From the UHGV virus genome UHGV-0256785: a stretch of DNA of 26,660 bases, one strand, 5' to 3'. Of this stretch, positions 6,433 to 7,389 are shown in pieces. The position numbers and the translations under genes were made by a program. The first letter of the stretch is position 1. Each line of letters opens with the position of its first letter. Source of the stretch: a virus. Under the pieces are notes generated by a model. The model worked only from the letters and a program-made list of their open reading frames with translations. It made no database searches and was not told where the DNA came from.

Positions 6433-6519
6433 TCGCCTGTAAGAGCAGAATATTGTTGAATCTAAATTTACTTTGAACAGTGGCCCGGATGGAAAGGGCA
6501 TCTAAATAGGAGCAGAAAA

Positions 6520-6729
6520 ATGTTAACTGTAAAAGTCATGTCTCAAAATGGTGGGGAAGAGATCCATTGCGGGCGTAGCATTGGCTATCATCCAGAGCAG
6601 CGGAGTATTGCCGTATCGGAAAAGGATGGGAAAGTCATTCTGAAAGATGGAGATATTGCTTATGTAATGAACCAAAACGCTCAAATAATATCTGTTTATC
6701 GGCCCAATAATAGTCAGAAAAACATTTGA
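6520..6729 (+). CDS. hypothetical small protein (69 aa)
   Basis: Strong RBS AGGAG at 6508-6512 with 7 nt spacing to ATG 6520; AT-rich surroundings; no family recognised. Confidence 0.45.
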   Translation: MLTVKVMSQNGGEEIHCGRSIGYHPEQRSIAVSEKDGKVILKDGDIAYVMNQNAQIISVYRPNNSQKNI

Positions 6730-6771
6730 ATTTCGCAAGGCCAAAGTTCAGTGGTGATCGTTATCAACTAA

Positions 6772-6800
6772 TTGAAATAACAAGCTTATGTTTGTGTAAT
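6772..6800 (+). promoter_or_regulatory. candidate sigma70 promoter for the 71 aa ORF
   Basis: TTGAAA at 6772-6777, 17 bp spacer, TGTAAT at 6795-6800. Confidence 0.3.
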
Positions 6801-6852
6801 TGGTGATATAGCATGTTAATGCTGAATATCAGCGTCAACATGGAGTTATACA

Positions 6853-7068
6853 ATGGTTTTTAAACACTATTACGTGAACAAAAATGCTCAGAGCAATGGC
6901 GATCATGAGGTGCATGCTGAGGAATGTTCATATCTTCCTGCTGTAGCTAACCGCGATTACCTTGGTTACTATAGTGATTGTTCTTCGGCGGTAACAGAGG
7001 CAAAGGCCAAAGGATATTCCCGGGTGAATGGTTGCTATTGGTGTGCCAATAAGTGCCACACGTCTTAA
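6853..7068 (+). CDS. hypothetical small Cys/His-rich protein (71 aa), possibly metal-binding
   Basis: GGAG at 6842-6845 then ATG 6853; HEVHAEEC and GCYWCANKCH motifs; followed by a terminator. Confidence 0.5.
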   Translation: MVFKHYYVNKNAQSNGDHEVHAEECSYLPAVANRDYLGYYSDCSSAVTEAKAKGYSRVNGCYWCANKCHTS

Positions 7069-7089
7069 TCAATTGTCAATAAACCATAA

Positions 7090-7110
7090 AGGCCGCTCTG
7101 CGGCCTTTTT
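7090..7110 (+). terminator. intrinsic terminator closing the small-ORF unit
   Basis: Stem GGCCG (7091-7095) / CGGCC (7101-7105), loop CTCTG, T5 run. Confidence 0.6.
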
Positions 7111-7389
7111 CATGTTAAAAAAGATTGCGGCATTACAGCAGCCCTTCACACTGAGGGGCTGCGATAATGTGAGAAATAAAAAACCGGCAGGGGAAATCCA
7201 TTGAAGATTTGCCGGTGGCAAAAAGATGGCCATGCTTTCAACCTTAGTCGCAGGGTTACGGAGTGCAACTACGAATGCTGCCGGTATATGGCTGAATAGC
7301 GTTTCAATGATGTACGTCATCTTATCTGTAAATGTTAATGATAAATGCTCTCATTTGTGCGGGTCCTTCCGGTGGGGTGGCCTGCCACG

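Follow-up and report, generated by a model that had tools for sequence, protein, structure and literature searches.

A mobile accessory insert with two small genes at the lysis/packaging junction of a lambdoid Escherichia coli prophage

Morons are inserts consisting of a promoter, a gene and a terminator that were described for the phages HK97 and HK022; bor and lom of phage lambda are the textbook examples. They are a main route by which temperate phages give new traits to their hosts. Here we analyse a stretch of 26,660 nucleotides (nt) from the virus genome UHGV-0256785, referred to below as the window. It is part of a lambdoid prophage of E. coli type in which two small open reading frames (ORFs), ORF1 and ORF2, separate the lysis module from the cos/terminase module. 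On balance, we consider it somewhat probable that the two form independent cassettes within a mobile accessory insert, a lytic gene (ORF1) and a moron (ORF2), rather than one two-gene unit.

The locus shares several properties with the lambdoid morons. Extra DNA is found between modules at a place where related phages carry other genes or none, its base composition is deviant, and a small gene is followed by its own intrinsic terminator. The position, between Rz and cos, is that of lambda bor. A preliminary description of the region had drawn this parallel, which holds for the position and not beyond it, as neither protein resembles Bor. The bor gene is antisense to the late operon whereas the insert follows late-operon orientation, and its product is a lipoprotein whereas that of ORF2 is a cytoplasmic Cys/His mini-protein. 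The translations of ORF1 and ORF2 contain no signal peptide, hydrophobic N-terminus or lipobox, and the Bor family was not matched in Pfam (E 0.1). Unlike morons with their canonical promoter, the locus has only a -10-like element as a candidate, and it carries a second, non-moron gene in addition. Among phage protein families, PHROG 4298 and PHROG 3909 match ORF2 and ORF1, respectively, over the full length, and neither entry carries a function. PHROG 4298 is a phage family, whereas the ORF2 family reaches far beyond phages, into the chromosomes of many bacterial phyla. The elements of the insert are as follows.

6459..7128, plus strand: accessory insert between the lysis module and the cos/terminase module, defined by homology breakpoints, GC content and mobility
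6483..6499, plus strand: degenerate terminator remnant GCCC-N9-GGGC without T run, in the slot of the strong pre-ORF1 terminator of other lineages
6508..6512, plus strand: Shine-Dalgarno sequence AGGAG of ORF1, 7 nt ahead of the ATG, read from the sequence
6520..6729, plus strand: ORF1, 69 residues, cytoplasmic all-beta protein, PHROG 3909 (phrog_3909, E 7.6e-36)
6755..6768, plus strand: conserved intergenic block TGATCGTTATCAAC containing a GATC site, found by cross-lineage conservation
6809..6814, plus strand: -10-like hexamer TAGCAT, proposed promoter element of the ORF2 cassette
6821..6833, plus strand: hairpin of 5 base pairs (bp), GCTGA-ATA-TCAGC, in the ORF2 leader, found by covariation
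6842..6845, plus strand: Shine-Dalgarno sequence GGAG of ORF2, 7 nt ahead of the ATG, read from the sequence
6853..7068, plus strand: ORF2, 71 residues, Cys/His-rich, PHROG 4298 (phrog_4298, E 4.5e-32)
7088..7110, plus strand: intrinsic terminator closing the ORF2 cassette (hairpin 7088-7108 with nine pairs, six of them G-C, then a T run)

The insert sits at a mosaic junction and is foreign by composition. The lysis genes and the DNA up to about position 6458 are homologous to phage phiP27; from about 7129 onwards, the DNA ahead of the terminase genes is homologous to phi458/cdtI. The GC content of 6433-7120 is 0.403 as compared with 0.526 for the whole window and 0.55 and 0.53 for the lysis and terminase flanks, a value within the lowest 0.1% of all 688-bp windows. 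A segment of 606 bp covering both genes was detected in 45 of 5,426 complete E. coli genomes at an identity of at least 99%, always as a single copy and always in the chromosome, whereas a query of 1,261 bp comprising the insert and its flanks matched 2,168 E. coli records. Strain E24377A carries the insert at NC_009801 1282234-1282830. The flanks vary: an M15 endolysin in one carrier corresponds to a GH108 endolysin in another, and likewise a DUF1441-type small terminase in one is replaced by a different small terminase in another. All records of the exact ORF1 and ORF2 proteins are from E. coli. A scan with Rfam revealed no family within 6433-7120.

Two carriers have additional features at the borders. 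In strain 67-1 (L098 1-2395), the IS66-family element ISCro1 abuts the insert on its left side (about 6457/6458), and its insertion point coincides with the end of phiP27 homology. In a Salmonella prophage (L008 4740-6790), two DUF2514 (Rz-like) genes of 176 and 180 residues enclose the ORF1-ORF2 pair and a DUF465 gene, as if duplication or recombination had left a scar around the insert.

The organization of ORF2 fits that of a moron. All 25 distinct upstream variants that were aligned have a TAnnnT hexamer 6-7 nt ahead of the leader hairpin. The hexamer itself takes 14 different forms (besides TAGCAT also TACTAT, TATGAT, TATCAT, TAAAGT, TAACAT, TAGTAT, TAGATT and others), and the chance of such a TAnnnT is about 0.06 per sequence. 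This pattern suggests a -10 element that would direct initiation of the mRNA at the base of the hairpin; the candidate promoter may need an activator. The promoter proposed in the preliminary description, at 6772-6800 (TTGAAA-17-TGTAAT), is not supported. It has a G at the second position of the -10 hexamer, where an A is required by the sigma-70 scan, which did not report it. It is not conserved either, the -35 hexamer being AGGTAA in Salmonella and the region being unalignable in lineage L179.

The hairpin has the form GCTGN-loop-N'CAGC in every variant from enterobacterial prophages and lies about 8 nt before the Shine-Dalgarno sequence. Among the 25 distinct sequences, the first pair is GC in 20, GU in four and AU in one, and the fifth is AU in 11, CG in 10, UA in two and UG in two. 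The covariation score of 0.347 exceeds both that of shuffles (0.138) and those of slid controls (0.173 or less). At the Shine-Dalgarno position, all lineages have a GGG/GGAG run. A terminator follows the ORF2 stop codon by 17-22 nt in nine of nine enterobacterial lineages, with differing stem sequences, and was also found in 31 of 40 distinct viral loci. These signals are kept in either order of the two genes; the ORF2 homologues of non-enteric phages are without TAnnnT and hairpin elements. Farther upstream, TGATCGTNATCAA is kept only in the E. coli, Salmonella and L179 copies, all with ORF1 preceding ORF2, and the surrounding DNA has diverged.

The two ORFs, their Shine-Dalgarno sequences and the terminator placed by the preliminary description at 7090-7110 were all recovered by ORF calls, inspection and terminator scan, and the AT-richness was borne out by the GC scan. 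Both ORFs are conserved as coding sequences, as seen from substitution ratios and from PHROG matches with E values of 1e-32 to 1e-36. For ORF2, the ratio of non-synonymous to synonymous substitutions (dN/dS) in comparison with the Salmonella prophage copy is 0.12. The AlphaFold 2 model of the protein, with a predicted local distance difference test score (pLDDT) of 93, has a beta-beta-beta-alpha-beta fold. Close members of the family share the invariant pattern YYVNKN.Q.NGD.EVH...C...P...N...LG....C..A....NGC..C...CHT, and a near-invariant YYVNKNAQSNGDHEVH hairpin is present in the closer ones. Across 86 diverse representatives, the candidate ligands are conserved to 81% (H18), 97% (H21), 97% (C25), 92% (C43), 98% (C61), 99% (C64), 90% (C68) and 87% (H69). 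The eight His and Cys residues may thus form one or two metal sites, most likely occupied by one or two zinc ions, with an iron-sulphur cluster as the alternative.

The label 'orphan', which had been given to both proteins, does not apply, as both have many homologues. A word-indexed search returned at least 812 close homologues of ORF2, mostly of 68 residues and 60-73% identical, from Bacteroidota, Acidobacteriota, Vibrionaceae and others. An exhaustive profile search with a cut-off of E<=1e-3 yielded 1,886 representative clusters, of which 888 also passed E<=1e-10, and at least 579 stretches matched the family in a scan of one genome per species. The matches listed include Bacteroidota, Proteobacteria, Acidobacteriota, Actinomycetota, Chlamydiota, Planctomycetota, Gemmatimonadota, Fusobacteriota, Myxococcota and one candidate-phylum bacterium. 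Domain fusions were considered for 150 representatives and rejected; the extra length of some proteins seems to come from miscalled starts or from signal peptides. Three proteins (P0197, P0199 and P0212) have a signal-peptide-like N-terminus and end in CDTG or CDHG instead of CHTS; they may be a secreted sub-branch of the family.

The gene neighbours of ORF2 are heterogeneous in 80 bacterial genomes. They include response regulators (15), DUF4236 (8) and HSDR_N (7) as well as DUF6232, DUF1508, YidD, relaxases, NACHT, AbiEii, Cas1, TerB/TerD and IS1595; smaller look-ups gave IS1595, nSTAND3 and MobA. No conserved operon partner was shared among the 80 genomes. This heterogeneity argues that the ORF2 protein works without a fixed partner and that its gene lives in variable regions. 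The only recurrent neighbour is a receiver-domain response regulator of about 221 residues, present at 15-16 of the 80 loci. It is encoded 5' of the ORF2 homologue on the same strand with a gap of mostly 130-150 nt, and all such loci with named taxa belong to Bacteroidota (Flavobacterium, Chryseobacterium, Pedobacter and Tenacibaculum; loci L025, L031, L033, L036, L046 and others). The arrangement could reflect conserved synteny or a regulatory link.

Only 16 records of cultured phages contain ORF2: 11 from Streptococcus (Javan prophages), two from Staphylococcus (among them phage 187), two from Erysipelothrix (among them SE-1) and one small Vibrio phage. In Javan231 and Javan420, the ORF2 relative is located in the early region, co-oriented with the integrase and the cI-like repressor and opposite to its neighbours, which is the usual position of a prophage-expressed gene. 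In one Photobacterium prophage, the homologue again adjoins lysis genes. Three RefSeq loci of E. coli were inspected (L001 3554-3769, L002 3554-3769 and L098), and ORF2 is unannotated in all of them. In strain 67-1, an overlapping out-of-frame ORF of 58 residues, WP_001382523.1 (L098 3019-3195, corresponding to 7028-7204 of the window), is annotated instead; GenBank records do list ORF2, as a hypothetical protein.

Neither ORF1 nor ORF2 had a match in scans of Pfam (E 0.1), NCBIfam and PADLOC. In PADLOC-DB, no defence model was matched at E values up to 1 by ORF1, ORF2 or two distant ORF2 homologues. Sequence searches of PDB, with single sequences and with profiles, gave noise only. Searches of the literature by motif, accession number and PHROG identifier found nothing.

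ORF1 differs from ORF2 in its carriers and in its signals. In comparison with the Salmonella copy, the proportion of non-synonymous differences (pN) is 0.30 and that of synonymous differences (pS) is 0.83, which is saturated. The AlphaFold 2 model (pLDDT 88) has seven strands. Homologues formed 29 clusters in a large protein search, with all named members from Enterobacterales, and were present in 252 cultured-phage genomes. Many of these belong to virulent T5-like phages that infect Escherichia, Salmonella and Klebsiella, including Tequintavirus, with the gene in the tRNA/early region; in T5_ev212 it lies among early-region tRNA genes. The gene is also carried by myoviruses of about 145 kb and by lambdoid phages, for example Fraca, where it comes after Rz. 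Where the ORF1 neighbourhood could be read, the gene is located just 3' of spanin/lysis genes and 5' of the terminase.

In 30 of 32 distinct upstream contexts, ORF1 is preceded by an intrinsic terminator with a GC-rich stem of 5-8 bp (mostly 7 bp) and a run of five to seven T residues, ending 23-27 nt before the ATG; its energy is -10 to -14 kcal/mol in 28 contexts. The conserved leader CCAGAAGAAGCAGGAGAAGAAGCATG comes after this terminator, and AGGAG is invariant across the aligned leaders. Because homologues are common in virulent T5-like phages and the terminator leaves no room for a promoter, a role in the lytic cycle is indicated rather than lysogenic conversion. ORF1 thus looks like a lytic-cycle gene separate from the moron. 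The preliminary description of the region as a moron-like unit therefore applies to ORF2, with its own terminator, conserved signals and foreign composition, and not to ORF1 with its virulent-phage homologues and upstream terminator.

Taken together, the stretch from about 6459 to 7128 would represent a horizontally mobile insert at the lysis/packaging junction of a lambdoid E. coli prophage. In most prophages, ORF1 would be read only by Q-antiterminated late transcription, given the strong terminator directly upstream, which has decayed in the lineage of the window. The ORF1 protein may act in lytic growth, either in host takeover or in anti-defence. ORF2 would be a moron cassette composed of TAGCAT, an mRNA beginning with a 5' stem-loop, the Shine-Dalgarno sequence, the ORF and a strong terminator. 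Expression of its product from the prophage would not depend on the late operon, and the protein may act alone on a conserved cellular target.

Several points weigh against this scheme. Both ORFs run in the same direction as the late operon with its lysis and terminase genes, and late read-through alone could express both. The sigma-70 scan of 6200-7650 reported no sites where 3.4 are expected by chance, and the -35 region of the TAnnnT element is poor, matching one to three of six positions without an extended -10. The leader hairpin consists of five pairs of which only two vary, and the figure of 100% pairing is partly circular because the sequences were collected by a pattern demanding pairing at pairs 1 and 5; despite this, covariation and G-U pairs favour an RNA structure. 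Metal binding by ORF2 is read solely from the conservation of residues. Finally, the lineage of the window is without the pre-ORF1 terminator, so that ORF1 is not insulated from upstream transcription.

The shared orientation, the negative promoter scan, the poor -35 region and the G-U pairs of the hairpin, which point to a role at the RNA level, are also what an alternative would predict in which both ORFs are plain passengers of the Q-dependent late operon. ORF2 would then have no promoter of its own, TAnnnT and hairpin would serve RNA processing, stability or translation, and the terminators would only insulate the prophage. However, the strict spacing of TAnnnT through 14 hexamers is hard to explain without a -10 function. 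The post-ORF2 terminator, present in every lineage, matters only for transcription that is not antiterminated, and the ORF2 relatives in the two Streptococcus prophages inspected, Javan231 and Javan420, face against the lytic genes. We regard this alternative as possible but unlikely.

A bolder form of the moron interpretation starts from the family. ORF2 would belong to an undescribed stand-alone family of about 68 residues, with eight conserved His/Cys ligands, a fold lacking any solved neighbour and a universally conserved cellular target, spread by prophages as a self-expressing cassette that alters host physiology or phage susceptibility, and would thus be a new conversion or defence-related factor. 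We advance this only tentatively and consider it rather doubtful.

The presence of both genes in one insert might also suggest a single system of two genes, be it an inhibitor and the protein it acts with, a toxin-antitoxin-like module or a defence or anti-defence pair. Among 80 viral loci with ORF1, 25 have ORF1 followed by ORF2 (the E. coli type), 13 have ORF2 followed by ORF1, and 42 have ORF1 alone; conversely, ORF1 is next door in 23 of 40 distinct viral ORF2 loci and not in 17. Same-strand adjacency in both orders speaks for such a system. A constant adjacency, as seen in a first small sample of enterobacterial prophages, was overturned by the larger samples. Against the system stand the loci with ORF1 alone, the occurrence of ORF1 in T5-like phages, and the presence of ORF2 in hundreds of bacterial genomes from phyla in which no ORF1 homologue was found. 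Moreover, a terminator separates the genes in the ORF2-then-ORF1 order, and PADLOC gave no match. Co-location is explained by a common insertion hotspot. In Pantoea prophages, the ORF1/ORF2 pair is located between two genes passing the Pfam threshold for Acb2/Tad1 (41 and 65 bits; cut-off 27), which marks the junction as a hotspot for accessory and anti-defence genes; ORF1 and ORF2 themselves do not match the Acb2_Tad1_hairpin model. The best leads on function are weak ones, a counter-defence role in the case of ORF1 and a metal-binding effector in that of ORF2. We conclude that ORF1 and ORF2 use a common insertion hotspot without forming an obligate pair, and a two-gene system is improbable.

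Least probable of all, and very much so, is that ORF2 is a small zinc-dependent nucleic-acid binder with the fold of the Ada N-terminal domain, regulating itself by binding its own leader hairpin or palindrome. The resemblances of fold to Ada and to the T4 antitoxin Dmd are weak and unsupported by sequence. A Foldseek search of PDB with ORF2 gave nothing below an E value of 4. No sequence or profile relationship was detected to the Ada zinc domain (PF02805; PDB 1eyf and 1u8b), which has the methyl-acceptor Cys38 where ORF2 has His, and four Cys ligands (Ada_Zn_binding) as opposed to the eight conserved ligands of ORF2. Dmd (PDB 5hy3_B) has a weak fold score, is outscored by NAD-kinase beta domains and has no sequence similarity.

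The genes bordering the insert are listed below.

5201-5590 and 5568-5855: two holins, 5' of the insert
5852-6235: M15 endolysin, 5' of the insert
6250-6432: small lipoprotein-like gene, phrog_7528, homologous to phiP27 L32, between the endolysin gene and the insert
7556-8122: DUF1441 small terminase, 3' of the insert
8122-10221: gpA-type large terminase, 3' of the insert

The product of the gene at 6250-6432 has a lipobox-like motif, LVGC, after its hydrophobic N-terminus and may be a lipoprotein, of the o-spanin type or another. An i-spanin gene is not evident in the interval that separates this gene from the endolysin gene. On the other side, the stretch from the terminator to the small terminase (7129-7555) seems to be widely shared among E. 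coli prophages, matches phi458, cdtI and mEp460, and presumably holds cos and accessory sites. The ORFs listed in it look spurious. Farther upstream, Rfam matches at gathering score were obtained for isrK (1894-1971), C4 antisense RNA (1997-2081) and the c4 a1/b1 target (1881-1934). At 1881-2081, upstream of the late region, they appear to make up a control module based on antisense RNA, of the type seen in P1/P7 c4 and Gifsy IsrK. Two tRNA genes, Thr(TGT) and Gly(TCC), are located at 4487-4640, just 5' of the lysis cassette, and the related prophage of strain E24377A has Ile, Thr and Gly tRNAs at the matching place.

The element itself belongs to a known class, with a moron anatomy that is unusually clean in the case of ORF2. 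ORF1, which is common to lambdoid prophages and virulent T5-like phages, is a reasonable candidate for a counter-defence screen. The part deserving follow-up is the ORF2 family: ORF2 points to a widespread and strongly conserved family of small metalloprotein-like proteins without a Pfam or NCBIfam model. If ORF2 is expressed in lysogens, the enterotoxigenic E. coli strain E24377A would offer a tractable entry to this family, which spans Bacteroidota to Actinomycetota.

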